Shown in pieces: positions 16,535 through 54,069 of a stretch of DNA of 64,000 nt. Origin of the DNA: Hyunsoonleella sp. 2307UL5-6 (GTDB lineage Bacteria; Bacteroidota; Bacteroidia; Flavobacteriales; Flavobacteriaceae). The notes beneath the pieces were generated by a model that was not told the DNA's origin, did no database searches, and saw nothing but the letters and a program-made list of their open reading frames with translations. The position numbers were made by a program, and so were the translations under genes. Location of the stretch: positions 14,142 to 78,141 of the forward strand of contig NZ_JBLFEN010000005.1 of NCBI RefSeq assembly GCF_047345485.1, read 5' to 3'. How positions within the stretch are numbered: position 1 is the first letter of the stretch; each line of letters begins with the position of its first letter.

Positions 16535-16596
16535 TCTTTTATATTTTTGTAAAACAGTTTTAAAATCGGTGTTTAACACCTATAATGTTGCAGTAA

Positions 16597-36723: not shown

Positions 36724-37836
36724 ATGAAAAAATTTACTGTCAGTACAATAAAATTACAAACAAAAGTTAGACTATTGATGAAGCATCAAGAAAAAATTGT
36801 AGTAGGAATATCAGTTGGAGATTTAAATGGTATAAGCGGAGAAATTATTTTAAAAACCTTTGAAGATTCTAGAATTTTAGAATTGTGTACGCCAGTAATT
36901 TTTGCATCAATTAAGGTGATGAGTTTTTTTAAAAATCACTTTAAATCATCTATAGACTTTAATAGCATTCACGATATAAAAAGTATAAAAGAAGGTAAAG
37001 TAAATGTGCTTAATTGTTGGAAAGAGCCTGTAACTATTACCTTTGGTAAAGAAGACACTAAAATAGGCGAATATGCTTTAAAATCTTTAGAAGCTGCTAC
37101 AAGCGCTCTAAAACAAGAACAAATTGATGTTTTGGTGACAGCGCCAATTAATAAACACAATATACAGTCTGAGGCATTTACATTTCCTGGGCATACAGAT
37201 TATTTAGCAAAAGAGTTGGGTGGTAATAGTTTAATGTTTATGGTAACAGATACTTTAAAAGTTGGGCTTTTAACAGATCATGTTCCTGTTAAAGAAGTAA
37301 CACAACATATAACAGAAGCGCTTATTACAGAAAAAATAAATACCGTATACAATACTCTAAAAAAGGATTTTAAAATTATAAAGCCTAAAATTGCCGTTTT
37401 AGGGATCAATCCACACACAGGAGATAACGGAGTTATTGGTAGCGAAGATGATGCTATAATGCGACCAACTTTAAAAAAAATAAAAGAAGCCGGCAAGTTA
37501 GTTTATGGCCCATATGCTGCAGATAGTTTTTTTGGATCTAATAATTATAAAAATTTTGATGCGATAATTGCCACATATCATGACCAAGGTTTAATTCCAT
37601 TTAAAACATTATCCTTTGGTCAAGGCGTTAATTTTACAGCAGGATTAACACGAGTTAGAACATCTCCAGACCATGGTACAGCTTTTGAAATAGCAGGAAA
37701 AGGAGTAGCAGATGCAGGATCCTTTAAAGAAGCCTTATTTACGGGAATTCAAATTTATAGAAACCGAATTGATTTTGAAGAACTTACAGCAAACCCTTTA
37801 AAAAAACAACCTAGAAAAGTAGGAGTGAAAAAATAA
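36724..37836 (+). CDS. pdxA: 4-hydroxythreonine-4-phosphate dehydrogenase
   Basis: FTFPGHTDYLA and other PdxA motifs. The likely true start is M at 36778 (MKHQEKIVVGISVGD), giving 352 aa. Confidence 0.85.
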   Translation: MKKFTVSTIKLQTKVRLLMKHQEKIVVGISVGDLNGISGEIILKTFEDSRILELCTPVIFASIKVMSFFKNHFKSSIDFNSIHDIKSIKEGKVNVLNCWKEPVTITFGKEDTKIGEYALKSLEAATSALKQEQIDVLVTAPINKHNIQSEAFTFPGHTDYLAKELGGNSLMFMVTDTLKVGLLTDHVPVKEVTQHITEALITEKINTVYNTLKKDFKIIKPKIAVLGINPHTGDNGVIGSEDDAIMRPTLKKIKEAGKLVYGPYAADSFFGSNNYKNFDAIIATYHDQGLIPFKTLSFGQGVNFTAGLTRVRTSPDHGTAFEIAGKGVADAGSFKEALFTGIQIYRNRIDFEELTANPLKKQPRKVGVKK

Positions 37837-37893
37837 TATTATCACTGTTGCCCTAAGCTAAAAAATTTATATATTTGCAGGCTCAAAATAGAT

Positions 37894-38436
37894 GTGATCA
37901 TGAAGCCAATGAAAGAATATGCTATCTCATTCGTGGGGTTAAAGGTTGGAAATCACAATTTTGAGTATAAGATAGACCAAACGTTCTTTGATTATTTTGA
38001 GTATGAAGATTTTAATAATGTAGCTATCAAAGTTGATGTTCTTTTGAATAAAAAAGCAACATTACTTGAATTACATTTTGAAATTACTGGACACGTAAAC
38101 ATTAATTGCGATGTAACAAATGAGCCTTACAATCAAAACCTCGAAAATAGTTTTGATTTAGTGGTAAAATTTGGACAAGAATATAACGACGAAAATATAG
38201 ATATTCTCATCCTACCACATGGAGAGTATGAAGTTAATATCCAGCAATATATTTACGAGCTTATTGTGCTTGCAATTCCTGCTAAACGTATTCATCCAGG
38301 CGTTGAAGATGGCACATTAAATTCTGAAATACTTGAAAAACTTGAAGAATTAAGTCCTAAAGAAAAAAAAGAAAAAACAGACAAGGATATAGATCCGCGT
38401 TGGAATACATTAAAGAAATTATTAACGGATAAATAA
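37894..38436 (+). CDS. yceD: YceD/DUF177 family protein (23S rRNA accumulation protein)
   Basis: 180 aa. Conserved position directly upstream of rpmF. Confidence 0.7.
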   Translation: MIMKPMKEYAISFVGLKVGNHNFEYKIDQTFFDYFEYEDFNNVAIKVDVLLNKKATLLELHFEITGHVNINCDVTNEPYNQNLENSFDLVVKFGQEYNDENIDILILPHGEYEVNIQQYIYELIVLAIPAKRIHPGVEDGTLNSEILEKLEELSPKEKKEKTDKDIDPRWNTLKKLLTDK

Positions 38437-38444
38437 TATAAAAA

Positions 38445-38648
38445 ATGGCACATCCTAAAAGAAAAATCTCTAAAACAAGAAGAGATAAAAGAAGAACACA
38501 TTACAAAGCAACTGCGCCACAGATTGCTACATGCCCTACTACAGGAGAAGCGCATTTATACCACAGAGCACATTGGCATGAAGGAAAATTATACTACAGA
38601 GGTCAGGTGCTTGTAGACAACTCTGAAGAAGCTGAAAACTTAGCATAA
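38445..38648 (+). CDS. rpmF: 50S ribosomal protein L32
   Basis: [19 protein letters not shown] start typical of L32. Confidence 0.9.
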
Positions 38649-38828
38649 GTATTATGCATGCATATAACAAAACGCTCCCTTGTGGGCGTTTTTTTTGTGA
38701 TATGCATTTATAAATTGCAAAAAAGCCTTAATTTGCTCTGTATTTGTTCAAAATTCCCTATTTTTCACCAAAATTGGTCAATTATTGATTCAATAAGAGC
38801 GTTTTTCGTTCAAATTTGTTAAAAAAGT

Positions 38829-39833
38829 ATGAGTAAAATCTCAGCAGCAATCACCGCAGTGGGAGCTTATGTTCCAGAATACGTATTAACCAATCAAATT
38901 CTTGAAACTATGGTTGATACTAATGATGAATGGATTACATCACGTACTGGCATAAAAGAACGTCGCATTCTCAAAGAAGACGGTAAAGGCACATCGTACC
39001 TTGCTATAAAAGCTGCACAAAATCTTATTGAAAAAAACGGACTAGACCCAAAGGATATAGAACTTGTAATTGTAGCTACCGCAACACCAGATATGAAAGC
39101 CGCTTCTACAGCATCTTATACAGCTTCTGAGATTGGTGCAACAAATGCATTTTCTTTTGATATGGATGCTGCATGTTCTAGCTTTTTATATGGCATGTCT
39201 GTAGCATCAACTTATATAGAATCTGGCCGTTATAAAAATGTACTATTAATAGGAGCAGATAAAATGTCGTCTATCATCAACTATAAAGATAGAGCCACAT
39301 GCATTATTTTTGGAGATGGTGCTGGTGCTGTTTTGTTCGAGCCTACTACTGAAGATTTAGGTCTTAAAGACGAATATTTAAGAAGCGATGGTACTGGTCG
39401 TGATTTTTTACAAGCTACGTATGGTGGTTCTTCATTTGCCTTAACACCTGAAGTTTTAGATAAAGGTGGGCATTACGCATTTCAAGAAGGTAGAACCGTA
39501 TTTAAAAATGCCGTATTTAATATGGCAGATGCAGCTGCTAAAGTTTTAGAAAGAAATAACCTTGATAAAGACTCTGTAGATTGGTTAGCAGCACATCAAG
39601 CTAATAAACGTATTATTGATGCTACTGCGCAACGCATAGATTTAGACGAAAGTAAAGTGATGATAAATATTCATAAATATGGAAATACAACATCAGCTAC
39701 TTTACCGTTACTTATAAACGATTACGAATCGCAACTTAAAAAAGGCGATAACATTATATTTGCTGCCTTTGGTGGTGGCTTTAATTGGGGTGCCATTTAT
39801 TTAAAATGGGCCTATAATTCTAATAAAAACTAA
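38829..39833 (+). CDS. fabH: 3-oxoacyl-ACP synthase III
   Basis: KAS III thiolase fold with active-site Cys in DMDAACSSFLYG, plus H and N regions (AHQANKRI, GNTTSATLP). Confidence 0.9.
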   Translation: MSKISAAITAVGAYVPEYVLTNQILETMVDTNDEWITSRTGIKERRILKEDGKGTSYLAIKAAQNLIEKNGLDPKDIELVIVATATPDMKAASTASYTASEIGATNAFSFDMDAACSSFLYGMSVASTYIESGRYKNVLLIGADKMSSIINYKDRATCIIFGDGAGAVLFEPTTEDLGLKDEYLRSDGTGRDFLQATYGGSSFALTPEVLDKGGHYAFQEGRTVFKNAVFNMADAAAKVLERNNLDKDSVDWLAAHQANKRIIDATAQRIDLDESKVMINIHKYGNTTSATLPLLINDYESQLKKGDNIIFAAFGGGFNWGAIYLKWAYNSNKN

Positions 39834-39857
39834 CCATTAAAACCAATAGCTGAATTT

Positions 39858-40349
39858 ATGGATTTAAAAGAGATTCAAAACTTAATCAAGTTTGTTGCTA
39901 AATCTGGAGCAAGCGAGGTTAAATTAGAAATGGATGATGTAAAAATCACCATCAGAACAGGATCAGATAACGATGCACCAGCTGTACAATATGCACCGAT
40001 TGCTGCTCCACAAATGGCACAAGCACCTGTAGCTCCAGTTGCAGAAACACCTGCCGCGGCAGAACCTGCTAAAGCAGAAACTCCTGCAGCAGCAGATGAT
40101 ACTTCAAAATACATTACAATTAAATCACCTATTATAGGAACATTTTACAGAAAGCCATCACCAGACAAACCATTGTTTGTTGAGGTAGGACAAACCATTG
40201 CCGAAGGCGATGTACTATGTGTCATTGAAGCTATGAAGCTTTTCAATGAAATAGAGTCTGAAGTTTCTGGAAAAATAGTTAAAGTTTTAGTTGATGATGC
40301 ATCTCCAGTAGAGTTCGATCAACCATTATTTTTAGTAGATCCGTCTTAA
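39858..40349 (+). CDS. accB: acetyl-CoA carboxylase biotin carboxyl carrier protein
   Basis: Ala/Pro-rich linker and the C-terminal biotinyl domain with the EAMKL motif. Confidence 0.88.
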
Positions 40350-40431
40350 TGTAAAATCACAATCTTCAAATTTCTAACTCCAAATATTTTTTTGGTTTTG
40401 TTCTTTTGAATTTTGAAAATTTTAAGAGTTT

Positions 40432-41775
40432 ATGTTTAAAAAAATATTGATTGCCAATAGAGGAGAGATCGCGCTACGCGTTATTAGAACCTGTAAAGAA
40501 ATGGGCATTAAAACGGTAGCGGTATATTCTACTGCTGATGCAGATAGTCTACACGTTAAGTTTGCTGATGAAGCGGTATGTATTGGTCCAGCACCAAGTA
40601 GCGAATCTTATTTAAAAATGTCTAACGTGATATCTGCAGCAGAAATTACTAATGCCGATGCTATTCACCCAGGATATGGTTTCCTATCAGAAAATGCTAA
40701 ATTTTCAGAAATTTGTGAAGAACATGGCATAAAATTTATTGGTGCTTCAGCTGAAATGATTGAGCGCATGGGAGATAAAGCAAATGCTAAGGCTACCATG
40801 AAAGCTGCCGGTGTACCATGTGTACCAGGAAGCGAAGGTATCATTGAAACCTTTGAAGAATGTGAAAAATTAGCTAAAAAAGCTGGCTACCCAGTAATGC
40901 TTAAAGCCAGTGCTGGTGGTGGCGGAAAAGGTATGCGAGGTGTTTTTAAAGAAGAAGACTTAAAAGATGCTTGGGATTCTGCCAGACAAGAAAGTAAAGC
41001 AGCCTTTGGTAACGACGATATGTATATGGAAAAACTCATAGAAGAGCCAAGACATATTGAAATACAAGTAGTTGGCGATTCTAACGGTAAAGCATGTCAT
41101 TTATCAGAAAGAGATTGCTCAGTGCAACGTCGTCATCAAAAATTAACCGAAGAGGTGCCATCGCCATTCATGACGCCTCAGTTGCGCAAAAAAATGGGAA
41201 AAGCAGCAGTTAAAGCTGCAGAATTTATAAAATACGAAGGTGCAGGCACCGTAGAATTTTTGGTAGATAAACACCGTAATTTCTACTTCATGGAGATGAA
41301 TACACGTATCCAAGTAGAGCACCCAATTACAGAACAAGTTATTGATTTCGATTTAATTAGAGAACAAATTCTAGTAGCAGCAGGTGTACCAATTTCAGGT
41401 AAAAATTACGATCCAAAATTACACTCTATAGAATGTCGTATCAATGCTGAAGACCCTTATAATGGGTTTAGACCATCACCAGGAAAAATCACCACATTAC
41501 ATGCTCCAGGTGGCCATGGTGTACGTTTAGATACCCACGTATACGCAGGTTATACCATACCACCAAATTACGACTCTATGATTGCAAAGTTAATAACCAC
41601 AGCGCAAACAAGAGAAGAAGCTATAAATAAGATGAAACGCGCTTTAGATGAGTTCGTTATCGAAGGTATAAAAACAACCATACCGTTCCATAGAGCATTA
41701 ATGGATCATCCAGATTATATTGCTGGAAATTATACCACCAAATTTATGGAAGATTTCGAAATGCCAAAAGCATAA
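40432..41775 (+). CDS. accC: acetyl-CoA carboxylase biotin carboxylase subunit
   Basis: ATP-grasp fold with [20 protein letters not shown] and GGGGKGMR motifs. 447 aa. Confidence 0.93.
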
Positions 41776-42837: not shown

Positions 42838-43287
42838 ATGTCTGTAAAACAAGAGTTATACCAACAATGCGAAGCTATTTTAAACCAACGTTTAAAAACC
42901 ATACAGCACACCATTGCAGATATTCAACATTCATTATTGTCTGAAACTAAAAGTAGTGCTGGCGATAAGCATGAAACGGGTCGTGCTATGTTACAACTAG
43001 AACGCGAAAAGGCAGGACAACAATTAGCTGAATTACAAACTCAAATAAAAATTTTACAAAAAGTAAACCCAGAACAATCGCATCAAAATGTAGCACTGGG
43101 AAGTGTTGTAAAAACCTCTGTATCCAACTATTTTATCTCCGTTAGTGTTGGAGAAATTAAAGCAAATAATCAATCGTTTTATGGAATTTCGGCAGCAACA
43201 CCTATCGGCAAACTCCTTTTGTCTAAACGCATAGGCGACACTATTACCTTTAGGTCGCAAAACTTCACAATTCTAGAAATTGAATAA
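42838..43287 (+). CDS. GreA/GreB-family domain protein (putative transcription factor)
   Basis: N-terminal coiled coil. The C-terminal FKBP-like segment GSVVKTSV...ISAATPIGKLLLSKRIGDTITF resembles the GreA C-terminal domain. Confidence 0.55.
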   Translation: MSVKQELYQQCEAILNQRLKTIQHTIADIQHSLLSETKSSAGDKHETGRAMLQLEREKAGQQLAELQTQIKILQKVNPEQSHQNVALGSVVKTSVSNYFISVSVGEIKANNQSFYGISAATPIGKLLLSKRIGDTITFRSQNFTILEIE

Positions 43288-43335
43288 AAAAGTAGAATTA
43301 CTTGATACTTTTTGTGTAACTTAAACCACAAAAAC

Positions 43336-43863
43336 ATGAAGTACTACATTTTTCTTGTCATTATGGTATGTTGTATGCCATTTGTTATGGCGCAACAAAC
43401 ATCTAGTATCGATTTTGTGATTAAAAACGTAGGGATAAGTGTAGATGGATATTTTAATGCATTTAATGTTTCTTCAAAATTTGATACAGCAAATAAATTA
43501 ATAGATATAAGCGGTAATGTAACAGTAAAATCCATCATAACTGGAATTGAAAGTCGCGATGAACATTTGTTAGAGGAAGAATATTTTAATGCTAAAACTT
43601 ATCCTTTAATAAGTTTACAAACTATCACTCTAAAACAAACATCCTCAAATAGATACACTGCAACAGTTGATGTAACAATTAAAGATAAAACCAAACGCAT
43701 AACTATTCCATTAACGGTTGAATATTCTGAATCCTCACGAAAAGTAACCTCAGAATTTGAGATTAACCGAAGAGATTTTGGAGTTGGCGGACGCAGTTTT
43801 GTGATGAGTAATACCGTAAAAATTAGTGTAGTTCACATTGAAAAAATTAATGGGGATAACTAA
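43336..43863 (+). CDS. YceI-family lipid/polyisoprenoid-binding protein (secreted)
   Basis: Signal peptide then a YceI-like beta-barrel (ESRDEHL..., EFEINRRDFGV). The ORF track extends the start to 43312. Confidence 0.7.
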   Translation: MKYYIFLVIMVCCMPFVMAQQTSSIDFVIKNVGISVDGYFNAFNVSSKFDTANKLIDISGNVTVKSIITGIESRDEHLLEEEYFNAKTYPLISLQTITLKQTSSNRYTATVDVTIKDKTKRITIPLTVEYSESSRKVTSEFEINRRDFGVGGRSFVMSNTVKISVVHIEKINGDN

Positions 43864-44983
43864 AACAGACATTGTTGTAATTGGCGGCGGTTTAGCAGGA
43901 TTAACAAGTGCTATACATTTAGCAAAAGCAAAATACAAGGTATTACTTATTGAGAAAAACAACTACCCTAAACATAAAGTTTGCGGAGAATATATCTCAA
44001 ACGAAGTAGTACCATATCTTAATTATTTGGGTTTTGATCCTTTTAAATTTGGCGCAAAACGCATTTCTAAATTCGAACTTACCACACACAATAATAAACG
44101 TATAACAGCAAAATTACCGCTCGGTGGTTTTGGGATGAGCCGTTATGCCATGGATTTTCGGTTGTATCAATTGGCGGTACAAAACGGTGTTGAGATACTT
44201 CAAGATACTGTAACTAATGTAGTTTTTAATAGTAATAGATTTCAAGTTGAGACAACAACAAACGCAATATTTCAATCTAAAATTGTGATTGGTGCTTTCG
44301 GAAAACGCTCAAATTTAGATGTACAATTACAAAGGCCATTTATAAAAAAGAAGTCGCCTTATTTAGGCGTAAAAATTCATGTTTCAGGGGATTTTCCAGA
44401 AGATAAAGTAGCATTACATAATTTTAAAGGTGGCTATTGTGGGGTGTCTAAAGTTGAGAATAATCACATTAATTTGTGTTATATCACAGACTTTTCAGCA
44501 TTTAAAAAATTTAAAGATATTGATGTGTTTCAAAAAGAAATACTTTTTAAAAATAAAGCACTACAAGCAATTTTTAACAACACGACACCAGAGTTTGAGA
44601 AACCGATAACTATTAGTCAAATTTCATTTGAAACCAAACAACCTGTAGAACAACATATGATAATGTGTGGTGATACCGCGGGCATGATACATCCGTTATG
44701 CGGCAATGGTATGGGTATGGCAATTCGGAGCGCACATTTGGCATCAAAGCTAATAATTGAGTATCTTCAAGGAAAAATTGAAACACGAGCTATTTTAGAG
44801 CAGCGTTATACAAAAGCTTGGAAAAAAACCTTTAGTTTAAGACTAAAAGCAGGACATACTATTGCCTATTTATTTAGGCAAAATTGGTTAGCGCCAAAAT
44901 TATTGGTAATGCTTGCGGTATTTCCGTTTCTAGTGCCAATAATTATCAAAATGACTCATGGAAAACCTATGGTAGCAGACTAA
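43838..44983 (+). CDS. FAD-dependent oxidoreductase (flavoprotein monooxygenase / geranylgeranyl-reductase-like; SrsC-like role)
   Basis: GxGxxG dinucleotide fold DIVVIGGGLAGLTSAIHLA, GD motif CGDTAGMIHP. 381 aa. Confidence 0.85.
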   Translation: MKKLMGITKTDIVVIGGGLAGLTSAIHLAKAKYKVLLIEKNNYPKHKVCGEYISNEVVPYLNYLGFDPFKFGAKRISKFELTTHNNKRITAKLPLGGFGMSRYAMDFRLYQLAVQNGVEILQDTVTNVVFNSNRFQVETTTNAIFQSKIVIGAFGKRSNLDVQLQRPFIKKKSPYLGVKIHVSGDFPEDKVALHNFKGGYCGVSKVENNHINLCYITDFSAFKKFKDIDVFQKEILFKNKALQAIFNNTTPEFEKPITISQISFETKQPVEQHMIMCGDTAGMIHPLCGNGMGMAIRSAHLASKLIIEYLQGKIETRAILEQRYTKAWKKTFSLRLKAGHTIAYLFRQNWLAPKLLVMLAVFPFLVPIIIKMTHGKPMVAD

Positions 44984-44986
44984 AAA

Positions 44987-45017
44987 GACCTCACAGGTTT
45001 TAAAAACCTGTGAGGTC
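44987..45017. repeat. family-A palindromic element (perfect copy)
   Basis: gacctcacaggttttaaaaacctgtgaggtc. Lies between the oxidoreductase and methyltransferase genes. Confidence 0.85.
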
Positions 45018-45075
45018 TATAAAACTAAATAATTTGTTTATAAATACCACACATAGAAGTAACAAAGCTGAAATT

Positions 45076-45738
45076 ATGGACGATTTTTCCATGAAAGGTG
45101 AACTACTACGCGATACTCTGGATAAACTAGGCAGTATAAACAAATGGCTTGGTGGTAATCGGGTAACTTTAGATGGTATTGCACAACTATTAAAACCCTA
45201 CTCAAAAGACAAAATATACACTATTATAGATCTAGGTTGCGGCCATGGTGATATCCTTAGGTTGGTTGCTGATTATGGTCGTAAAAGTGGATTTCAGTTC
45301 AAACTAATTGGTATAGATGCCAATCAAGATGCGATTGATTATGCTAATGAATTATCGGTAGATTATCCTGAAATCAGCTTTCAAAATCTCGATATTTTTT
45401 CAACAGCATTTCAAAATATAGATTACGACATAGCACTCACCACCTTGTTTTTACATCATTTTAAAAATGAAGACATTATAAATCTTTTAAAAAATATAGC
45501 ACGCAAAGCGAAATTAGGGATTGTTGTGAACGACTTACACCGAAGCAAGATCGCTTACGGTCTTTTTAAATTGTTAAGCTTAGTGATTACTAATGATATG
45601 ATTGTACAAGATGGGTTAACCTCTATTCTCAGAGCTTTTAAACGAACTGATTTAGAACAGCTATCTCAAACCTTAAATTTTAAATCAAAAATCCGTTGGA
45701 AATGGGCATTCCGTTACCAATGGTTAATACACACATAA
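45076..45738 (+). CDS. class I SAM-dependent methyltransferase (SrsB-like role)
   Basis: Motif I IIDLGCGHGD. The start is taken at MDDFSMKGE because the longer ORF (45010) runs through the palindromic repeat. The stop is immediately followed by the PKS ATG. Confidence 0.8.
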   Translation: MDDFSMKGELLRDTLDKLGSINKWLGGNRVTLDGIAQLLKPYSKDKIYTIIDLGCGHGDILRLVADYGRKSGFQFKLIGIDANQDAIDYANELSVDYPEISFQNLDIFSTAFQNIDYDIALTTLFLHHFKNEDIINLLKNIARKAKLGIVVNDLHRSKIAYGLFKLLSLVITNDMIVQDGLTSILRAFKRTDLEQLSQTLNFKSKIRWKWAFRYQWLIHT

Positions 45739-46791
45739 ATGGCAGTAAAAATAACGGCGGTGGCAAAACAATTGCCCCAATATACACGAGAAACTAAAGA
45801 TATTCTGCCTTTTGTAGAGCTTTGGCTTGACGGTCAAGAGGAGCGCTTTAAACGCAAAGTGCTAAAAATTTTTGAAAACGCAGCTGTTGATAAGCGCTAC
45901 TCTATCATGAGTCCTGAAGAGGTTTTCTTAAACACTTCTTTTGAAGAAAAAAATGATATTTATACGCGTGAAAGTATCAAACTTGCAGAAAAAAGCGTTA
46001 CAAAAGCATTAAATAAAGCCCAACTGAAACCTACTGATATTGATTATATTATTACAGTAAGTTGTACTGGAATTATGATTCCGTCTTTAGATGCATATCT
46101 TATTAATAGTTTAAAGATGAAACAGGATATTGTAAGACTTCCAGTAACCGAAATGGGTTGTGCTGCAGGCGTATCTGGTGTTATTTATGCAAAGAATTTT
46201 TTAAAAGCAAACCCGAATAAACGCGCTATAGTAGTGGCGGTAGAATCGCCAACGGCAACCTTTCAATTAGAAGATTATTCTATGGTGAATATAGTGAGTG
46301 CTGCCATTTTTGGTGATGGTTGTGCGAGTGTTATTTTATCCTCTTATAAGAATGAAATTGGTCCCGAAATTAAAGATGAAGCCATGTATCATTTTTATGA
46401 TGCGAATCACATGATGGGTTTTAAACTGCGCAATACGGGCTTACAAATGGTGTTGGACCAAACGGTGCCGCAAACCATAGCAGACCATTTCCCTAATATT
46501 ATTCATCCGTTTTTAGAGCAAAACCATTTAACTATTGAAGATATTGACCATTTAGTATTTCACCCAGGTGGAAAAAAAATTGTGCAAACCGTGGAGGATT
46601 TATTTGGAGATTTAGGTAAAAATATAGACGACACAAAGGAGGTGTTACGATTATATGGTAATATGAGTAGCGCCACAGTATTATACGTTTTAGAACGTTT
46701 TATGGATAGAAATTTACCCAAAGGCGATAAAGGTATTATGTTAAGTTTTGGACCTGGGTTTTCGGCGCAACGTGTGTTATTAGAGTGGTAG
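45739..46791 (+). CDS. type III polyketide synthase (chalcone-synthase superfamily; alkylresorcinol/alkylpyrone synthase-like)
   Basis: Cys-His-Asn triad contexts MGCAAGVSG, HPGGKKIV and GNMSSATVLYVLE, plus the SFGPGFS C-terminal motif. 350 aa. Confidence 0.88.
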   Translation: MAVKITAVAKQLPQYTRETKDILPFVELWLDGQEERFKRKVLKIFENAAVDKRYSIMSPEEVFLNTSFEEKNDIYTRESIKLAEKSVTKALNKAQLKPTDIDYIITVSCTGIMIPSLDAYLINSLKMKQDIVRLPVTEMGCAAGVSGVIYAKNFLKANPNKRAIVVAVESPTATFQLEDYSMVNIVSAAIFGDGCASVILSSYKNEIGPEIKDEAMYHFYDANHMMGFKLRNTGLQMVLDQTVPQTIADHFPNIIHPFLEQNHLTIEDIDHLVFHPGGKKIVQTVEDLFGDLGKNIDDTKEVLRLYGNMSSATVLYVLERFMDRNLPKGDKGIMLSFGPGFSAQRVLLEW

Positions 46792-46844
46792 TAAAAATGT
46801 GTGAGTATTATGCTGAACTTGTTTTAGTATATCATATTGTGAAA

Positions 46845-46875
46845 GACCTCACAGGTTTTTAAAACCTGTGAGGTC
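46845..46875. repeat. family-A palindromic element
   Basis: gacctcacaggtttttaaaacctgtgaggtc. Lies between the PKS and enoyl reductase genes. Confidence 0.85.
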
Positions 46876-46907
46876 TCAGAAACAAAAAAGTATTTTAGAA
46901 AAGAAGC

Positions 46908-47702
46908 ATGAAAGAATTCAAAGATAAAAACCAATGGGCATTAATTCTAGGTGGAAGTAGTGGCCTAGGTTTAGCTACAGCAAAAAAACTAGCGAAACAC
47001 GGGTTGCATATTTGTATTGTACACAGAAATTCCAGAATGCAAGAAGACGAAATAAATGCAACATTTGACAGTATTAAAAATCAAGAAATAAGTTTTAAAG
47101 CTTTTAATATTGATGCTTTTAAACCAGAAAAACGAACTCTGATTATTGAGGCTTTAAAAACTGAACTTGGTATTCATGGGAAGATTAAAACACTTGTGCA
47201 TAGTGTTGCCAAAGGAAATTTAAAACCTATGATTTCTGATGAATCACCAGTTTTAAAACATGACGATTTTGCGTTAACTATTGCAGCTATGGGCATTAGT
47301 TTATACGATTGGACTACAGCTGTTTTTGAAGCAAATTTATTTGCAGAAGATGCACGAATTATAAGTTTTACGAGCGAAGGTAATACTAAAGCATGGAAAA
47401 ATTATGCGGCGGTGTCGGCAGCAAAAGTTACGTTGGAAGCCATTACCAGAAATATAGCACTTGAATTTGCACCACATGGTATAAAAGCCAACTGCATACA
47501 AGCAGGTGTTACAGATACACAATCCTTACGGATGATTCCAGGAAGTGAAAACATTATAAAACATAGTTTAATTAGAAACCCAAACAAGCGTTTAACGCTA
47601 CCAGAAGATGTAGCTAATGCGGTGTATTTATTAAGTAAAAATGAAGCCTCTTGGATTACAGGAACTATTATTCCTGTGGATGGTGGAGAGCATTTGAGCT
47701 AG
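46908..47702 (+). CDS. SDR-family enoyl-ACP reductase (FabL/FabI-like)
   Basis: Gly-rich NAD(P) site ILGGSSGLGLA and a Y-x6-K catalytic motif (YAAVSAAK), as in FabI/FabL rather than the Y-x3-K of ketoreductases. Confidence 0.65.
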   Translation: MKEFKDKNQWALILGGSSGLGLATAKKLAKHGLHICIVHRNSRMQEDEINATFDSIKNQEISFKAFNIDAFKPEKRTLIIEALKTELGIHGKIKTLVHSVAKGNLKPMISDESPVLKHDDFALTIAAMGISLYDWTTAVFEANLFAEDARIISFTSEGNTKAWKNYAAVSAAKVTLEAITRNIALEFAPHGIKANCIQAGVTDTQSLRMIPGSENIIKHSLIRNPNKRLTLPEDVANAVYLLSKNEASWITGTIIPVDGGEHLS

Positions 47703-47734
47703 ATATTTTATGATTAAAAATTAATTAGGATAAA

Positions 47735-48202
47735 ATGATTTTTTTTAATTTTAAAAAGCGAAGTGATGCTGATTTTCAAAAAATTTTTATGAATCAAGCT
47801 ATCCAAGTTTTTAATCCTTTATTTCAAAGATATAGTTTCAAAATCATTAATTATGAAAGCTTTAAATCTAGTTCAAAGATAGTATTTCGGAAAGGTTCAA
47901 AACACATATTAATTTTAAGTCAACATGAACATAGGGATGGGTCTTTTTTTGAAATTACAATTGGCGGAGAATTAGAAAGAGAAACTGGCTTATTTGATGG
48001 TTATCATATATCTATCAATAGATTGTGTGAAATAAATGGGAAAAAGTGTAAAGATTTTTATGCTTTTCCTTTTGGAGAAAAACAGAGTTTAAAAGCTTTA
48101 AAAAAAGCTAAAAACGATTTTTTAAGTTGTGCTTTGTTTTTTTTAGAAACAGAAGAGGATCTGTTTGATAAAGTTTTAAAACTAAAAGGTATAAGGAAAT
48201 AA
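47735..48202 (+). CDS. hypothetical protein inside the PKS cluster
   Basis: 155 aa with no motifs. Tightly packed, with the next gene starting at +1. Confidence 0.45.
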   Translation: MIFFNFKKRSDADFQKIFMNQAIQVFNPLFQRYSFKIINYESFKSSSKIVFRKGSKHILILSQHEHRDGSFFEITIGGELERETGLFDGYHISINRLCEINGKKCKDFYAFPFGEKQSLKALKKAKNDFLSCALFFLETEEDLFDKVLKLKGIRK

Positions 48203-48643
48203 TTGAATAAACAACACATCATATCATTATTACCCTATCAAAAACCATTTTTGTTTGTGGATGGTATTGAAGCAATATCAGAACAAGGTGTAACGGGATA
48301 TTACACCTTCAAAAAAGAGGAATCATTTTACGAAGGACACTTCAAAAACAATCCAATAACACCTGGTGTAATATTGACCGAATGTATGGCTCAAATAGGT
48401 TTGGTATGTTTGGGTATTTATTTGTTAAAAGATGAATTAAAAGAAACCACAAATCCTCAAATTGCATTAACATCGCATCAAATGGATTTTTATTTGCCCG
48501 TTTTACCCGAAGAAAAAGTCACTGTAATTTCAGAAAAGCAAGTGTTTCGTTTTAATAAACTAAAATGTAAAGTAAAAATGCTAAATGCAAAAGGCGAATT
48601 AGTAGCAAGAGGTTTAATTTCAGGAATGATAGTAATAAAATAA
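48203..48643 (+). CDS. FabZ/FabA-like 3-hydroxyacyl-ACP dehydratase (hotdog fold)
   Basis: YEGHFKNNPITPGVILTECMAQ matches the FabZ active-site region (H and E). Confidence 0.7.
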   Translation: MNKQHIISLLPYQKPFLFVDGIEAISEQGVTGYYTFKKEESFYEGHFKNNPITPGVILTECMAQIGLVCLGIYLLKDELKETTNPQIALTSHQMDFYLPVLPEEKVTVISEKQVFRFNKLKCKVKMLNAKGELVARGLISGMIVIK

Positions 48644-48648
48644 AACTA

Positions 48649-48679
48649 GACCTCACAGGTTTTTAAAACCTGTGAAGTC
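48649..48679. repeat. family-A palindromic element (one mismatch)
   Basis: gacctcacaggtttttaaaacctgtgaagtc. Lies between the dehydratase and KAS genes. Confidence 0.8.
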
Positions 48680-48689
48680 TTAAAATACT

Positions 48690-49964
48690 ATGAAAAACAG
48701 AGTAGTTATAACAGGATTAGGCGTTGTTGCACCAAATGGTGTTGGTGTTACCGAATTTACCAACGCACTTAAAACAGGAAAATCTGGCATTACATTTCAT
48801 CAAGAACTAAAAGATTTAAATTTTTCTTGCCAAATTGGAGGTGTACCTAAAATTTCAGAAGCGCTAAAAGCAAAGTACTTTACTGATTTACAATTACGAG
48901 GTTTTAATAGTTCGGGGATTTTATATGGTTGTATTGCCGGTATTGACGCTTGGAAAGATGCTGGTTTCAACGTAAATTCTGAAAGTGCATTAGATGTGGA
49001 TAGCGGACTCATTTTTGGGACAGGAACTTCTGGTGTGGAGAAATTTAGAGAAGCTATTTACAAACTAGATGAAGGTAAGGTACGCCGATTAGGAAGCACT
49101 GTAGTGCTACAAACCATGACCAGTGGTGTTAGTGCGTATTTAAGCGGCATGTTGGGTTTTGGCAACCAAGTGACTACCAATTCTTCGGCATGTAGTACAG
49201 GAACAGAAGCGGTACTTATGGGTTTTGAGCGCATACAACATGGAAAAGCTAAACGCATGTTAGTAGGTAGCTGTAGTGATCATGGACCTTATGTTTGGGG
49301 TGGTTTTGATGCTATGCGCGTAATGACCTACAAACACAATGATACACCAGAACAAGGCTCTCGCCCAATGAGCGCCTCAGCTAGTGGATTTGTTCCAGGA
49401 AGTGGTGCTGGCGCTTTAGTTTTAGAATCTTTAGAAAGTGCCATAGCGCGTGGCGCTAAAATATATGCTGAAGTTTTAGGTGGCGACGTTAATTCTGGCG
49501 GGCAACGCCATGGCGGTACGTTAACAGCACCAAATGCCGAGGCTGTAAAACGATGTATTACCAAAGCTTTAGAAAATGCCGCAGTACATCCAGATACTAT
49601 TGATGTTATTAATGGACATTTAACTGCAACATCTAAAGATGGCTTAGAAATTGAAAATTGGACAAAAGCCCTAAACAGAAAAGGTAAAAATTTCCCTTAT
49701 ATAAACGCTACTAAATCCTTAATTGGCCATTGTTTAGCAGCAGCAGGCGCCATTGAATGTGTGGCGAGTGTTATTCAACTTAAAGAACAGTTTGTAGCAC
49801 CTAATATAAATAGTGATGATGTTCATCCAGACATTGAAGCACTAATTACCAAAGAAAGCATGCCAAAACAAAAAATAGAAACAGCGATTAATACAATTAT
49901 TAAAGCGAGTTTTGGGTTTGGAGATGTAAATGCATGCGTGGTATTTAAAAAATTTGTTGCATAA
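48690..49964 (+). CDS. beta-ketoacyl-ACP synthase (KAS I/II, FabF/FabB-like)
   Basis: Thiolase fold with the active-site Cys in SSACSTGTEA and His regions (GHCLAAAG). 424 aa. Confidence 0.88.
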   Translation: MKNRVVITGLGVVAPNGVGVTEFTNALKTGKSGITFHQELKDLNFSCQIGGVPKISEALKAKYFTDLQLRGFNSSGILYGCIAGIDAWKDAGFNVNSESALDVDSGLIFGTGTSGVEKFREAIYKLDEGKVRRLGSTVVLQTMTSGVSAYLSGMLGFGNQVTTNSSACSTGTEAVLMGFERIQHGKAKRMLVGSCSDHGPYVWGGFDAMRVMTYKHNDTPEQGSRPMSASASGFVPGSGAGALVLESLESAIARGAKIYAEVLGGDVNSGGQRHGGTLTAPNAEAVKRCITKALENAAVHPDTIDVINGHLTATSKDGLEIENWTKALNRKGKNFPYINATKSLIGHCLAAAGAIECVASVIQLKEQFVAPNINSDDVHPDIEALITKESMPKQKIETAINTIIKASFGFGDVNACVVFKKFVA

Positions 49965-49982
49965 CTTTTTTTTGACGTTTTA

Positions 49983-50013
49983 GACCTCACAGGTTTTCGA
50001 AACCTGTGAGGTC
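49983..50013. repeat. family-A palindromic element
   Basis: gacctcacaggttttcgaaacctgtgaggtc. Lies between the KAS and ACP genes. Confidence 0.85.
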
Positions 50014-50056
50014 TTTTAATCAAGCGTTTTGTAACTTAGCATAACAAAAATGTACT

Positions 50057-50308
50057 ATGAAAAACGAAGCATTAATTTCCAAATTAAAAACTATAATTAA
50101 GCCTTATATTCAAGATGAAGAGGCTTTTGAAAACTTATCTGAGGAGACCGATTTTGTAAAGGACTTGAAAATAAATTCTGCGAACTTAGTGGACATAATT
50201 CTTGACATTGAAGATGAATTCGACATCCGTTTGGAAAACGAGGATATGGAAAAAATGTTGGATGTAAAATCTGCTATGACTATAGTAAATACAAAGCTAG
50301 AAGCGTAA
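50057..50308 (+). CDS. acyl carrier protein (cluster-dedicated)
   Basis: 83 aa acidic four-helix pattern with the phosphopantetheine Ser in LKINSANLVDIILDIEDEF. Confidence 0.75.
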   Translation: MKNEALISKLKTIIKPYIQDEEAFENLSEETDFVKDLKINSANLVDIILDIEDEFDIRLENEDMEKMLDVKSAMTIVNTKLEA

Positions 50309-50871
50309 TGGTTGGCAACGACATTGTTGATATTAATGAAGCGAAAAACGCCTCTAATTGGCAACGTCCTCGGTTTTTAGATAAATTGTTTACTACACAA
50401 GAACAAGTTTTGATTCAAAATGCTTCAAACCCTTTTTTAAAAGTTTGGCGCTTATGGAGTATGAAGGAAGCGGCTTATAAATTATATACCCAACACTATC
50501 CAAGTCGATTTTATAACCCAAAAAGGTTTGAATGTTTCATTCACGGTGATATTGGTGTTGTAAAGTTTCAAGAGTTTCAGTGTTATGTATCAACAAAAAT
50601 AACGTCTCAATACATCATGTCAGAAGCACGACAAGATATGAAACCTATGACTTCAAAAGTTATCAAATTTGAAACTAAAAGCGTCAAAAATCAGAGTGAA
50701 ATAATTAGAAAATTACTTTTGAAAACAGCAGGTGAGACGTTTAATATTTCTAAAGAAAATTTAAAAATTACAAACTCAAAATATGGTGTTCCAAGTATTA
50801 ATATCAATTCTAAAATAAGGTCTTTAAGTTTAACCCACCATGGAAATTACGGAGCTTACGCCTTAAGTTAA
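50308..50871 (+). CDS. 4'-phosphopantetheinyl transferase (AcpS-type)
   Basis: VGNDIVDI and WSMKEAAYK motifs parallel AcpS GTDIVEI / KEAAAK. The start overlaps the ACP stop (ATGA). Confidence 0.65.
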   Translation: MVGNDIVDINEAKNASNWQRPRFLDKLFTTQEQVLIQNASNPFLKVWRLWSMKEAAYKLYTQHYPSRFYNPKRFECFIHGDIGVVKFQEFQCYVSTKITSQYIMSEARQDMKPMTSKVIKFETKSVKNQSEIIRKLLLKTAGETFNISKENLKITNSKYGVPSININSKIRSLSLTHHGNYGAYALS

Positions 50872-50873
50872 TT

Positions 50874-53126
50874 ATGAAACTATTAAGAAATAGTGTACAG
50901 TTTACTATAAAGTTTAGAATTGCAATCATTGTAGTTTTTGCGGTTTTAGTGGCAGTTGCAGGTCACCAAACCCTTAATAAACTTAGCGTAGACAACTCAC
51001 TATCTATTTGGTTTTTAGAGGACGACCCTAGCTATAAAGCCTATATCGATTTTCAAGAAAATTTTGGTTCAGATGAGATTTTTATTGCAATGCTTCCTGT
51101 AGAAAATGCGATTGGAGAAGCTGATGTTAATAGGTTGCAACAGTTACATAAGGACATTGAAACCTTACCTTACGTAAAAACTACATTTAGTTTAGCAAAA
51201 GCGAAATACCCAATTTATGCAAATGATAAGATAAATTTTGATGATTTATATAACCCAAAACGCAGTGAAAAAGGGTTGAAGAGTCTCTTTTCAAAATTAC
51301 CCAACATCACATCGCAATTAGTTACTAAAGATTATAAACACCAGTTTTTCTACATCCAAATGAAACCTACGCCAACTATAGAGGAAAAGCGACAGGACAT
51401 AGCTGTAGAAATTAGAACAATTATAGATAAATCGTATTCCAATTATTACCTTACGGGACCACCTGTGCTTAATGAGGCTTACAGTAAAGGTATTTACAAA
51501 GAGAGTTTAACCTTTGGCATATTAACCGTTTTGGTTATTACTATCTTACTGTTATTTTTGCTTCCTAACAAGCGCTATTTGTTTATCGCTTTACTTTCGG
51601 TGGCTATTCCTGTAAGTTTATTGTTTGGTTTAATCACTTCGTCGGGTTTTGCTTTAAATATGATTTCTATGCTTATACCAACAATTCTTATGGTATATAG
51701 CGTTAGTGACGCAGTACATATTATAAACATATACCATAAAGAAGGTTTACTAAACGCTTCGATATCGAAAGTTGATTTGATTACTACCGCCATTCGTAGA
51801 AGTTTAACGCCTTGTTTTTATACCACATTAACCACATTTGTTGGCTATTTTGCGCTGTATATATCACCACTTCCTGCATTTAAAAACATGGGTGTGTTTA
51901 CCTGTATAGGTTTAGTAATGAGCTTTATTTTAGTGTATGTTATTACCATTATTGGGTTTAGTTTTATGAAATTAAATTTTGAAAAAGCGACACCCATTTT
52001 TAAATTAAAAGGGATATCTCAAACCAAATTTATAGCATGGCTCAATGGGTTTACATCAAACTATAAAACATCTATTATTACCGTTTTTACAATAGTACTT
52101 GTGTTTGGTATATACTCTATTTTTCAAGTAGATATAGATACAAATTCTCGTGATTTATTAGCAGAGGGACAAGCAAAAGACGACCTAAGAACTGTAGAAG
52201 TAGAACTTGGAGGAAGCAACAGATTACAACTTAATATTACTACCAATAACGGTGCTATTATCTTAACTAAAGATGCCTTAAAAAAGCTGGAAATTTTCCA
52301 TAAAAAGTTAGAGGATAACCCATTAATTTCTTCGCCTGTTTCTGTGGTAACCATCAAATCATTTTTACAAAAACGCACACCCGTTTTGTTTCAATCTAGT
52401 ATTTCTGAAGAAAAATTAAAAAACACATTGGCAGATGTAGATGCGGCAGAAAACAGTTTTTTTAAATTATTTTCTGAAAATTTATCTTCTGCAAGTTTTA
52501 CATTAACCTTAATGGAAATGAGAACTTCAGAACTTGAGCAGGTATTGAATGATATAAAAATTGCTTTTGAAGAGACGTTTGATACGAACGATTTTAATTT
52601 GAAAATAAATGGTTTTGCAGTGGTATTTTCACAATTAAACAACTTTATATTAGAAACACAGTTTAAGTCCTTTTTTGCAGCATTTTTCGTCGCGTTTCTG
52701 TGTTTATGGTTTTTTATAAAAAGCTTAAGAACAACAGTTTTAGTTTTAATTCCGAATATATTACCACTAGCTATTTTAGCTATTTTTATGAGCTTATTAA
52801 ATATTCCTTTGGATGTTTCCACAGCAATGATTACGCCTATAATGTTGGGTATTGCTATGGACGACACCATTCATTTAGTACATAAATACCGAAAAAGTAA
52901 ACGTATACAAGGCACTCCAGAGCAGCGTATGAATAATGCGATGCACTACACAGGTGGTGCACTTTTATCTACCACTATTGCTCTTGTTGGAGGGTTCTTA
53001 ATTATTGCATCTAGCGCCACACCATCCGTAAGTGATTTTGGTACCTTATGTGCCGTAACAGTTGCGATTGCTTTAATTACCGATATTTTCTACTTACCAG
53101 CGTTATTAAAAACATTTGATAAATAA
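50874..53126 (+). CDS. MMPL/RND-superfamily exporter
   Basis: 750 aa with two 6-TM bundles, each preceded by a large extracytoplasmic loop. Confidence 0.8.
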   Translation: MKLLRNSVQFTIKFRIAIIVVFAVLVAVAGHQTLNKLSVDNSLSIWFLEDDPSYKAYIDFQENFGSDEIFIAMLPVENAIGEADVNRLQQLHKDIETLPYVKTTFSLAKAKYPIYANDKINFDDLYNPKRSEKGLKSLFSKLPNITSQLVTKDYKHQFFYIQMKPTPTIEEKRQDIAVEIRTIIDKSYSNYYLTGPPVLNEAYSKGIYKESLTFGILTVLVITILLLFLLPNKRYLFIALLSVAIPVSLLFGLITSSGFALNMISMLIPTILMVYSVSDAVHIINIYHKEGLLNASISKVDLITTAIRRSLTPCFYTTLTTFVGYFALYISPLPAFKNMGVFTCIGLVMSFILVYVITIIGFSFMKLNFEKATPIFKLKGISQTKFIAWLNGFTSNYKTSIITVFTIVLVFGIYSIFQVDIDTNSRDLLAEGQAKDDLRTVEVELGGSNRLQLNITTNNGAIILTKDALKKLEIFHKKLEDNPLISSPVSVVTIKSFLQKRTPVLFQSSISEEKLKNTLADVDAAENSFFKLFSENLSSASFTLTLMEMRTSELEQVLNDIKIAFEETFDTNDFNLKINGFAVVFSQLNNFILETQFKSFFAAFFVAFLCLWFFIKSLRTTVLVLIPNILPLAILAIFMSLLNIPLDVSTAMITPIMLGIAMDDTIHLVHKYRKSKRIQGTPEQRMNNAMHYTGGALLSTTIALVGGFLIIASSATPSVSDFGTLCAVTVAIALITDIFYLPALLKTFDK

Positions 53127-53127
53127 A

Positions 53128-54069
53128 TCAGTTTTTTATTTGAAGGTAAACTGTGTCACCATTTTTTAATAAGGTATTGTGCTCAAAAAATACAGATTCC
53201 TTATTCAAAATAGCTTCAACTAAATAAAATCGCCCTTTGTAATAAGACTGTTTTACCACGGCTTTTAATGTTGATTTAGATACAATTTTAAGTTGATGCG
53301 CATAAACAATCTTATTATTAATGGTATTAAATTCTCCAAAAAAAGCAGCAATTAAAGGAGATTCTGGAGTTTCAAACACCACTTTTGGAGATTTATTTAT
53401 CATGATTTTGTGCTTATCTAATACAATCATACGGTCAGCAAAACCGAGGACATCCTCTTTAGAATGTGTTGCTACAATACACGTAATGTCATGCGCTTTT
53501 AAATACCCAAATACTTTGCGGCGCAAACTCTGAGTTCTAAAATTATCAATATGGCTAAAAGGTTCGTCTAATAGTAATATTTGAGGTTGTTTGGCTAAAG
53601 CTCTTGCCAAGGCTACACGTTGTTTTTGTCCGCCACTTAAAGTTTTAACTTTGGTTTTTGCGAAATCTTCTAATTCTACAACTTCAATAAGCTCAGTAAC
53701 ACGCTGTTGTGTTTCTTCGGGAAAAAACCGAGATAAATGTTTTGCTATATTTTCTTCCACAGAAATATAAGGCATCAAATCGAATTCTTGAGCCACGTAT
53801 TTCATAAAATCATAACCGATAACTAAGTTATATTTGGGGCCTAAAATTTCTTGATCTTTCCAAAAGATAGTGCCTTCATCTAAATCATATTCACCATAAA
53901 GCAACTTTAAAAGCGTACTTTTTCCAGAACCACTTTCTCCAATTATAGCAATATTTTCACCTTGTTTGGCTTCAAAGGAAATACCGTTTAAAACAGGAGT
54001 TTTATCGTATTTAAAAGAAAGATTATTTACGTTTAACATAGCCGTTGCAAAAATACTATAAAAAAACAC
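53128..54069 (-). CDS. ABC transporter ATP-binding protein
   Basis: Walker A GESGSGKST, signature LSGGQKQRV and Walker B ILLLDEP. The true start is possibly MLNVNNLSF. Confidence 0.85.
   Translation of the reverse strand: MFFYSIFATAMLNVNNLSFKYDKTPVLNGISFEAKQGENIAIIGESGSGKSTLLKLLYGEYDLDEGTIFWKDQEILGPKYNLVIGYDFMKYVAQEFDLMPYISVEENIAKHLSRFFPEETQQRVTELIEVVELEDFAKTKVKTLSGGQKQRVALARALAKQPQILLLDEPFSHIDNFRTQSLRRKVFGYLKAHDITCIVATHSKEDVLGFADRMIVLDKHKIMINKSPKVVFETPESPLIAAFFGEFNTINNKIVYAHQLKIVSKSTLKAVVKQSYYKGRFYLVEAILNKESVFFEHNTLLKNGDTVYLQIKN

Follow-up and report, generated by a model that had tools for sequence, protein, structure and literature searches.

A conserved type III polyketide synthase cluster of marine Flavobacteriaceae with a discrete, incomplete type II fatty-acid synthase module

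Introduction

What is made by a type III polyketide synthase (PKS) gene cluster in which the PKS is followed by a row of fatty-acid synthase (FAS)-like genes, and do those genes belong to the same pathway as the PKS? The locus that raises this question lies in a 64,000-nt stretch of Hyunsoonleella sp. 2307UL5-6 (contig NZ_JBLFEN010000005.1), hereafter the window, which is AT-rich, with a GC content of 27-38% over 2-kb intervals. In the breakdown of algal carbon, marine Flavobacteriaceae play a major part. In genome-mining surveys, type III PKS (T3PKS) clusters make up 9-11% of flavobacterial biosynthetic gene clusters and are unmatched to known clusters (PMC7440613, PMC10734526, PMC9860996), and the cluster described here is already visible to antiSMASH surveys as an orphan "T3PKS". 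An earlier note on this DNA had read it as a phenolic-lipid pathway with its own FAS toolkit. Our results support this reading, with refinements: the cluster is genuine and strongly conserved in marine Flavobacteriaceae, and it joins a discrete, incomplete type II FAS module to an srs/hid-like phenolic-lipid operon, an architecture of which we found no description in the searchable literature. The present analysis defines the conserved core of this orphan cluster, apart from lineage-specific add-ons, and a concrete, testable pathway can now be proposed for it.

Results and discussion

Gene content and conservation

The cluster occupies a run of same-strand open reading frames (ORFs) at 42838-53126, followed by a convergent ORF at 53128-54069. 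Domains were called on the window ORFs with Pfam (gathering scores) and NCBIfam (equivalog cut-offs), and every gene listed in the earlier note was recovered, with matching coordinates and with domains as named there. The core genes, and the evidence for each, are:

43838-44983 (+): membrane-anchored flavin adenine dinucleotide (FAD) enzyme, probable ring hydroxylase (NCBIfam, C-terminal helix)
45010-45738 (+): class I S-adenosylmethionine (SAM)-dependent methyltransferase (Methyltransf_25/31/11; PRK06202-like, 132 bits)
45739-46791 (+): type III PKS, long-chain alkylresorcinol/alkylpyrone type (Chal_sti_synt_N/C, FAE1_CUT1_RppA)
46908-47702 (+): FabL-like enoyl-acyl carrier protein (ACP) reductase of the short-chain dehydrogenase/reductase (SDR) type (best NCBIfam model FabL)
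48203-48643 (+): FabZ-like 3-hydroxyacyl-ACP dehydratase (Pfam FabA, FabZ models)
48690-49964 (+): elongating ketosynthase of the beta-ketoacyl-ACP synthase (KAS) I/II type, apparently a dedicated paralogue (FabF model)
50057-50308 (+): apparently dedicated ACP with a non-canonical attachment motif (AcpP model)
50308-50871 (+): AcpS-like phosphopantetheinyl transferase (PPTase), atypically long at 187 aa (ACPS domain, residues 2-80)

The stop codon of the methyltransferase gene directly abuts the PKS ATG (45738/45739), as had been described; the junction of the ACP and PPTase genes, previously given as an ATGA overlap, instead reads GCG TAA TGG, i.e. a 1-nt TAATG overlap.

Relatives of the PKS were scanned with one genome per species; at least 562 species hold a close relative, and the best 80 were analysed. 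All of these belong to Flavobacteriaceae or are unclassified Flavobacteriales/Bacteroidota metagenome-assembled genomes, and they span more than 15 genera (e.g. Winogradskyella, Algibacter, Jejuia, Psychroserpens, Lacinutrix, Polaribacter, Tenacibaculum, Gelidibacter, Formosa, Aquimarina and Flagellimonas). The core, running from the FAD enzyme through methyltransferase, PKS, (enoyl reductase), dehydratase, ketosynthase and ACP to the PPTase, is syntenic in these 80 related loci, with PKS identities of 79-93% (among the matches listed, a protein homologue search with the PKS gave relatives at 82% identity or above). A gene order found again in 80 loci of other species is far from anything expected by chance. 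Presence was counted over the 59 full loci, i.e. those of the 80 with enough flank:

FAD enzyme, methyltransferase, dehydratase, ketosynthase, ACP: 58/59 each
PPTase: 57/59
GreA-like gene: 53/59
Enoyl reductase: 51/59
YceI-like gene: 35/59
MMPL exporter gene: 24/59
155-aa ORF: 0/59

Median identities in these loci are highest for the PKS (83%), followed by ACP and enoyl reductase (77% each), ketosynthase (75%), dehydratase (74%), FAD enzyme (66%) and methyltransferase (60%), with the PPTase as the least conserved member (44%). Reference genes from the same loci give medians of 91% (accC) and 77% (asd), so that the PKS appears to be constrained like core enzymes, which indicates strong purifying selection.

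Distant relatives of the PKS were sought among 1.84 billion cluster representatives, with contig look-ups for gene context. The next full-length representatives stand at 62% identity and then at 47-40%. The 62%-identical relative (L082, 45% GC) carries overlapping genes for methyltransferase, PKS, SDR, dehydratase, ketosynthase, ACP and PPTase, with identities of 58% for the ketosynthase, 51% for the ACP and 44% for the enoyl reductase. Relatives at 44-47% identity lie in three gene contexts, all without FAS-like genes: a PKS-YceI-x-FAD_binding_3-UbiE methyltransferase array from a GC-rich genome of unrelated origin (PKS 47% identical), methyltransferase and FAD genes divergent from the PKS, and a PKS alone. 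The FAS module, present in the 62% relative and absent from those at 44-47%, is thus clade-defining, whereas methyltransferase, FAD enzyme and PKS, often with YceI, form a widespread theme.

The type III polyketide synthase

The PKS scores 72.4 and 69.8 bits with the N and C domains of Pfam Chal_sti_synt (gathering 27) and 74.3 bits with FAE1_CUT1_RppA. Against NCBIfam models it reaches 177 bits with DpgA, 84 with FabH (cut-off 249) and 30 with DarB (cut-off 550), and it is 22% identical to the genuine FabH of the window (38829-39833). Its solved relatives are, best first, Mycobacterium tuberculosis Pks11 (178 bits), Streptomyces coelicolor tetrahydroxynaphthalene synthase (THNS, 153 bits) and CylI (143 bits), below which come dozens of plant chalcone synthase/stilbene synthase (CHS/STS) enzymes. 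Pks11 (PDB 4jao), a long-chain acyl starter enzyme, matches over its full length, but is far more distant than the members of the clade are from each other and stands in another genomic context. The invariance of catalytic residues was read across 69-80 orthologues, depending on the gene; for the PKS, the triad C141/H275/N308 is invariant in 80/80, with H275 within FHPGG, N308 within GNMSSA, and C141 aligned to the catalytic C138 of Pks11, the residue mutated to Ser in 4jat. Judged by these scores and residues, the protein is a true type III PKS, CHS-like as had been proposed, and a KAS III of the FabH/DarB type is ruled out by model scores far below the cut-offs.

The same holds for the proposal that this is not a flexirubin or aryl-polyene pathway, given the DarB score and a lack of DarA, DarB and ammonia-lyase domains among the cluster ORFs. 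Flexirubin/dialkylresorcinol (DarA/DarB) and aryl-polyene clusters of Bacteroidota share with the present one a discrete ketosynthase, dehydratase and ACP, as well as an MMPL-type exporter; here, in contrast, no DarB-type enzyme or ammonia lyase was found in the cluster, and the reductase is an enoyl reductase, not a ketoreductase (KR).

As a separate observation, the top match of the PKS in the representative library (P0121) is a sequence of 4818 residues with 12 matched stretches at 26% identity, apparently a giant protein with numerous type III PKS-like repeats, unless the gene model is mis-assembled or fused.

The fatty-acid synthase-like module

Each of the FAS-like proteins is recognizable by family but scores well below the housekeeping cut-off. 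The ketosynthase reaches 282 bits with the FabF model (cut-off 494), has its best PDB matches among Brucella FabB-like and FabF enzymes, and keeps C168/H310/H347 invariant among orthologues. The dehydratase, in which H46 and E60 are invariant, scores 63-65 bits with FabZ models (cut-offs 113-155) and matches Pfam FabA, and no family other than FabA/FabZ was matched in Pfam or NCBIfam. The ACP scores 35 bits with AcpP (cut-off 70), the PPTase 20 bits with AcpS (cut-off 60), and the SDR 144 bits with its best NCBIfam model, FabL (cut-off 328), its best PDB match being Bacillus subtilis FabL (3oic). In the SDR, Y166-x6-K173 (NYAAVSAAK) is invariant in 69/69 orthologues and kept in the 62%-identical relative. 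A Y-x6-K spacing is that of enoyl reductases such as FabL, whereas FabG has Y-x3-K. As a control, the FabH of the window clears its cut-off (400 versus 249 bits), and so do pdxA, ribE and alr theirs; lineage divergence therefore does not explain the low scores of the FAS-like proteins.

A domain search of the cluster ORFs found no KR, malonyl transacylase (acyltransferase, AT) or initiating KAS III in the set, which therefore cannot be a free-standing FAS. What stands of the proposed private FAS toolkit is thus the ketosynthase, dehydratase, enoyl reductase, ACP and PPTase, and not a KR or an AT. The claim that these are not the housekeeping copies is borne out: sub-cut-off scores, the missing KR, AT and FabH, and the strict linkage to the PKS rule out a housekeeping FAS-II identity, a judgement that covers the window and the related loci rather than the remainder of the source genome. 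On this sequence evidence, the FAS-like genes are dedicated, divergent type II FAS paralogues. Since clusters of the T3PKS type are found in just some Flavobacteriaceae, at 0.39 per strain in the marine clade (PMC7440613), FAS-like genes tied to them are hardly candidates for the essential FAS.

The attachment site of the ACP is also unusual. Canonical ACPs carry a DSLD-type (Asp-Ser-Leu) motif; here the site reads L-K-I-N-S41-A-N-L-V-D and is nearly invariant, S41 and its immediate neighbours being retained in 72/72 orthologues, and the 62%-identical relative has INSAHLVD. Such a non-canonical site fits an ACP that has a PPTase of its own, and INSANLVD is a possible specificity determinant for the dedicated, atypically long AcpS-like PPTase.

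Tailoring genes and likeness to known operons

The genes for the FAD enzyme, methyltransferase and PKS are contiguous on one strand, in an arrangement conserved in 58/59 loci. This trio had been likened to Streptomyces srsABC, and in gene content it does match characterised alkylresorcinol operons (PMC10896814, PMC8086630, PMC5916927). The srsABC operon and its M. smegmatis homologue, the pks10 operon, both yield methylated alkylresorcinols, and the latter polyketide quinones as well (PMC5916927). Each contains a trio of PKS, methyltransferase and flavoprotein/oxidase, and their methylated alkylresorcinols and alkylbenzoquinones are embedded in the envelope or membrane (PMC5916927), but their starters come from general metabolism, they have no private ACP, ketosynthase, dehydratase, enoyl reductase or PPTase, and their PKSs carry Trp at the position of ArsB W281, where the present PKS has Phe. 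Operons of methyltransferase, FAD oxidoreductase and type III PKS have likewise been characterised in cyanobacteria (hidABC, hierridins) and Planctomycetota; their PKS makes pentadecyl- and heptadecylresorcinols (C15/C17), which undergo methylation or oxidation, one methyl group being added to the alkylresorcinols when the methyltransferase and FAD-oxidoreductase genes are co-expressed (PMC10896814, PMC8086630). The hidABC and planctomycetal mtr-fdo-t3pks operons hold the same three kinds of gene, in one variant with a lipid/isoprenoid-binding protein as well; the present order, however, is FAD-MT-PKS (MT, methyltransferase), and the PKS is followed by five FAS-like genes, of which those operons have none. 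The FAS-like genes beside the PKS recall Azotobacter vinelandii arsABCD, which has a dedicated FAS in the PKS operon and in which long acyl chains on the ACP of ArsA pass directly to ArsB/ArsC (PMC6274091). That system has type I multidomain ArsA/ArsD, two PKSs and no methyltransferase or flavoenzyme, whereas the present cluster has discrete type II proteins, an incomplete set (no KR, no AT) and one PKS.

The FAD enzyme has a hydrophobic C-terminal helix and is probably a ring hydroxylase, as judged from its sequence. Its scores are all below the respective cut-offs (geranylgeranyl-reductase family 110 bits, QhpG 82, LodB 76, Ubi-hydroxylases 67). A halogenase role was considered and rejected: the weak PDB matches to FADH2-dependent halogenases cover the N-terminal dinucleotide-binding region only, and there is no WxWxIP-like motif. 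The true start of the methyltransferase (GTG 45010 or TTG 45034) is uncertain because the GTG falls within a 33-nt palindrome, one of several described below.

Proposed pathway and alternative explanations

We consider it reasonably probable that the cluster is one operon which builds a membrane-directed polyketide lipid by private ACP hand-off to the PKS, the product probably being a modified phenolic or pyrone lipid. The PPTase would activate the private ACP, housekeeping FabD would load malonate onto it, and the ketosynthase would draw an acyl chain from primary metabolism and extend it on this ACP, with housekeeping FabG performing the missing ketoreduction and the dehydratase and enoyl reductase of the cluster finishing each cycle. 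The long acyl-ACP would then be handed directly to the PKS, as from ArsA to ArsB/ArsC; we infer this direct transfer because a Pfam/NCBIfam domain search found no thioesterase, CoA ligase or fatty acyl-AMP ligase (FAAL) encoded in the operon. The PKS would add about three malonyl-CoA and cyclise the chain to an alkylresorcinol (somewhat favoured) or an alkylpyrone, the flavoenzyme would hydroxylate the ring and the methyltransferase would methylate it, giving a methoxy-alkyl-(hydro)quinone or phenol of the hierridin, Srs or mycobacterial polyketide-quinone type. The secreted YceI protein may bind the lipid in the periplasm, the HpnN-like MMPL pump, in the present lineage, may move it towards the outer membrane, and the GreA/Rnk-like protein would probably regulate the operon.

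Several points weigh against this scheme. The ACP-to-PKS hand-off is purely our deduction, and a private FAS without KR and AT needs help from FabG and FabD. The enoyl reductase is missing from 8/59 loci. The highest score of the FAD enzyme is with geranylgeranyl reductases, so that it may reduce a double bond instead of hydroxylating the ring, and the tailoring genes beside the 47%-identical PKS belong to other subfamilies (UbiE-type, FAD_binding_3), the FAD enzymes being 23% identical and the methyltransferases giving no match at E <= 1e-4. No characterisation or product of the flavobacterial cluster was found in the searchable literature. Finally, at the position of ArsB W281 and Pks11 W230 the PKS has Phe228, invariant in 80/80 orthologues, in place of the Trp taken as the mark of resorcinol synthases.

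This last point bears on the view that the PKS is an alkylpyrone synthase (Pks11/Pks18/ArsC-like) and the product a methylated long-chain alpha-pyrone of an otherwise identical pathway, which we see as a real if minority possibility. In Azotobacter, W281 in ArsB versus Gly in ArsC sets resorcinol versus pyrone (PMC6274091), and it is this resorcinol-determining Trp that is replaced here; Pks11, the closest solved relative, is annotated as an alpha-pyrone synthase, and the JGI family name is 'alkylresorcinol/alkylpyrone synthase'. Phe is, however, close to Trp in bulk, unlike the Gly of the pyrone former ArsC (PMC6274091). Solved relatives carry Trp (Pks11), Tyr (THNS) or Leu (CylI) at this position, and since CylI is a proven alkylresorcinol synthase, the rule of Trp for resorcinols is not universal and Phe228 gives no reading of the cyclisation mode. 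Against a pyrone also stands the pairing of a probable ring hydroxylase with a methyltransferase, as used for tailoring in the resorcinol pathways Srs, Hid and M. smegmatis pks10 (PMC5916927, PMC8086630).

It is very unlikely that the SDR is a ketoreductase and that an aryl-polyene-like set of ketosynthase, KR, dehydratase and ACP makes a polyenoyl starter for a pigment-like polyenyl resorcinol or pyrone. Such a role would supply the KR that the cluster otherwise lacks, the SDR is absent from some loci, the dehydratase of the 62%-identical relative also matches Pfam ApeI-like, and, as the earlier note remarked, MMPL exporters accompany aryl-polyene and flexirubin clusters. Yet the invariant Y-x6-K spacing is that of an enoyl reductase and not of FabG, the best model and the best solved structure of the SDR are both FabL, and the dehydratase in the window matches FabA/FabZ only. 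That the ketosynthase, dehydratase, enoyl reductase, ACP and PPTase serve another lipid pathway or housekeeping FAS-II, and merely stand beside an srs-like three-gene operon, is hardly credible: the cluster does lie 5 kb downstream of housekeeping fabH-accB-accC, and PKS relatives at 44-47% identity work without FAS-like genes, but the genes share one strand and keep a fixed order beside the PKS, with short gaps or overlaps between them, in 57-58/59 loci and in the 45%-GC relative, their products all fail the housekeeping cut-offs, and the set is without FabG, FabD and FabH.

Returning to the proposed acyl-ACP-fed phenolic or pyrone lipid, the housekeeping-level conservation of the PKS points to a physiological function, in the envelope or in redox processes, rather than to an occasional antibiotic, and if this is true, the cluster matters for the way in which these bacteria deal with light, oxygen or life on surfaces. 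A further-reaching reading, which we regard as distinctly improbable, is that the product is a polyketide (benzo)quinone/hydroquinone lipid serving as a redox or antioxidant membrane component, combined with chain capture by the ketosynthase and ACP and with tuning by repetitive extragenic palindromic (REP) elements. To our knowledge, the Flavobacteriaceae hosts are known only for menaquinone-6. The product would then be a second quinone class beside it, analogous to mycobacterial polyketide quinones, which could explain a PKS as tightly conserved as core metabolic enzymes; the ketosynthase/ACP module would be a new 'chain-capture' device diverting primary-FAS acyl chains to the PKS, and REP hairpins would tune the relative expression of operon segments.

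Accessory, envelope and flanking genes

The remaining genes in and around the core are:

42838-43287 (+): GreA/Rnk-like small protein, probable cluster-linked regulator (Pfam, NCBIfam, linkage)
43312-43863, likely start 43336 (+): secreted YceI-like lipid/polyisoprenoid-binding protein (Pfam YceI, 84 bits)
47735-48202 (+): 155-aa accessory ORF in a variable insertion slot, not a pathway enzyme (no family)
50874-53126 (+): MMPL/HAE3 (HpnN-like) RND lipid exporter, lineage-specific add-on
53128-54069 (-): convergent ABC ATPase, importer-type (PotA/CysA-like), membership doubtful

The GreA-like gene noted upstream of the cluster does have a domain match, albeit a weak one (26.4 bits versus a Pfam gathering score of 26.9; GreA_GreB C-terminal domain, E = 7e-6; NCBIfam GreA, 1e-6). 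It lies 5' of the FAD gene in 45 loci and 3' of the PPTase gene in 9. Together with YceI it is mostly found upstream of the FAD gene, and in Polaribacter-type loci downstream of the PPTase, contiguous and on the same strand; as the linkage is kept through this rearrangement, both genes appear to belong to the system. For YceI, the signal peptide (MKYYIF...VMA, followed by QQ) and the starts of orthologue alignments make ATG 43336 the more likely start. A lipid/isoprenoid-binding protein has been reported in the 'S. ferox' T3PKS operon (PMC10896814); with the YceI gene next to the 47%-identical PKS, this makes YceI a repeated companion of T3PKS genes across unrelated lineages.

The MMPL exporter and the convergent ABC ATPase had both been counted with the cluster. 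Each is present at the locus; the exporter, however, is confined to 24/59 loci of the Winogradskyella/Algibacter/Jejuia type and absent from the other full loci, and is thus not part of the conserved core. The ABC ATPase has no adjacent permease, and its start overlaps the terminator of the upstream peptidase gene. Since its block, ABC-peptidase-asd-mscL, abuts the cluster in conserved form with or without MMPL, we treat it as a neighbour, probably only a conserved one, rather than as a member of the pathway.

On the other side, immediately upstream of the cluster, lies a housekeeping block at 36724-41775 (pdxA, yceD-like, fabH, accB, accC), which places the genes for malonyl-CoA supply and for the initiating KAS III next to the PKS operon on the chromosome. 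About half of the related loci likewise have accB/accC upstream of the cluster, at a distance of 2-9 kb. The interval between accC and a 131-aa ORF without family holds a Flavo-1 RNA (Rfam RF01705; 41859-42006, - strand; 49.9 bits versus a gathering score of 42) with a 73-nt terminal-loop insertion.

Palindromic repeats and an insertion slot

A 33-nt perfect palindrome, AGACCTCACAGGTTTT(n)AAAACCTGTGAGGTCT, occurs in 7 copies in the window, versus 0 expected by chance. Four REP-like copies fill junctions that are the only sizeable spacers of the operon:

44986-45018: copy 1, FAD/methyltransferase junction (16-nt arms, 100% complementary)
46844-46876: copy 2, PKS/enoyl reductase junction
48648-48680: copy 3, dehydratase/ketosynthase junction
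49982-50014: copy 4, ketosynthase/ACP junction

The other copies lie at about 9006-9038, 14525-14557 and 16503-16535. Across the 80 related loci, 26/29 copies fall within the FAD-to-PPTase span, which makes up 34% of the DNA, counts that are not phylogenetically independent; the overlapping genes of the 62%-identical relative have no such palindromes. A riboswitch or other known RNA was rejected for want of an Rfam family (the trpB-motif match, 27 bits versus a gathering score of 59, is sub-threshold), as were coding-strand terminators, since no T-run follows the palindromes on the + strand and the scan flagged the - strand only.

In several genera (Jejuia, Winogradskyella-like, Polaribacter), a gene for a 186-aa Y1_Tnp/IS200-like protein of the REP-associated tyrosine transposase (RAYT) type sits inside the PKS operon, in the enoyl reductase/dehydratase (ER/DH) or PKS/DH slot:

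L003 12018-12578; L019 8283-8840; L061 11125-11682: flanked by two palindromes
L071 11109-11666; L080 4250-4807: flanked by two palindromes
L011 12038-12595: probably disrupted, one palindrome 3'

A many-copy palindrome and a Y1 HUH transposase gene with a copy on either side are the hallmarks of REP/RAYT (TnpA_REP) systems, the first seen in the window and the second in the five related loci above, and the motifs NHFH and YIH(T/L)NP resemble those of class 2 TnpA_REP proteins described for Bacteroidetes (PMC6006769). No homologue of the RAYT gene was found within the window. The palindrome could act as punctuation in the mRNA, or its positions may reflect no more than where its transposase resides.

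The ER/DH slot is empty in most loci and is occupied by unrelated accessory genes in the window and in L002, L005, L007, L029, L064 and L068; its contents elsewhere include an HNH_2 nuclease, a YdeI/OmdA-like protein and a secreted DUF218-hemopexin protein. In the window it holds the 155-aa ORF, for which Pfam and NCBIfam gave no family match, whose only homologue among the 80 related loci is in L002, and for which a single-sequence AlphaFold2 model was unusable (predicted local distance difference test, pLDDT, 47). This ORF had been listed as a cluster gene of unassigned function, and it is indeed present, as an accessory insert rather than a conserved part; the sharing of the slot by unrelated genes marks it as an insertion hot-spot.

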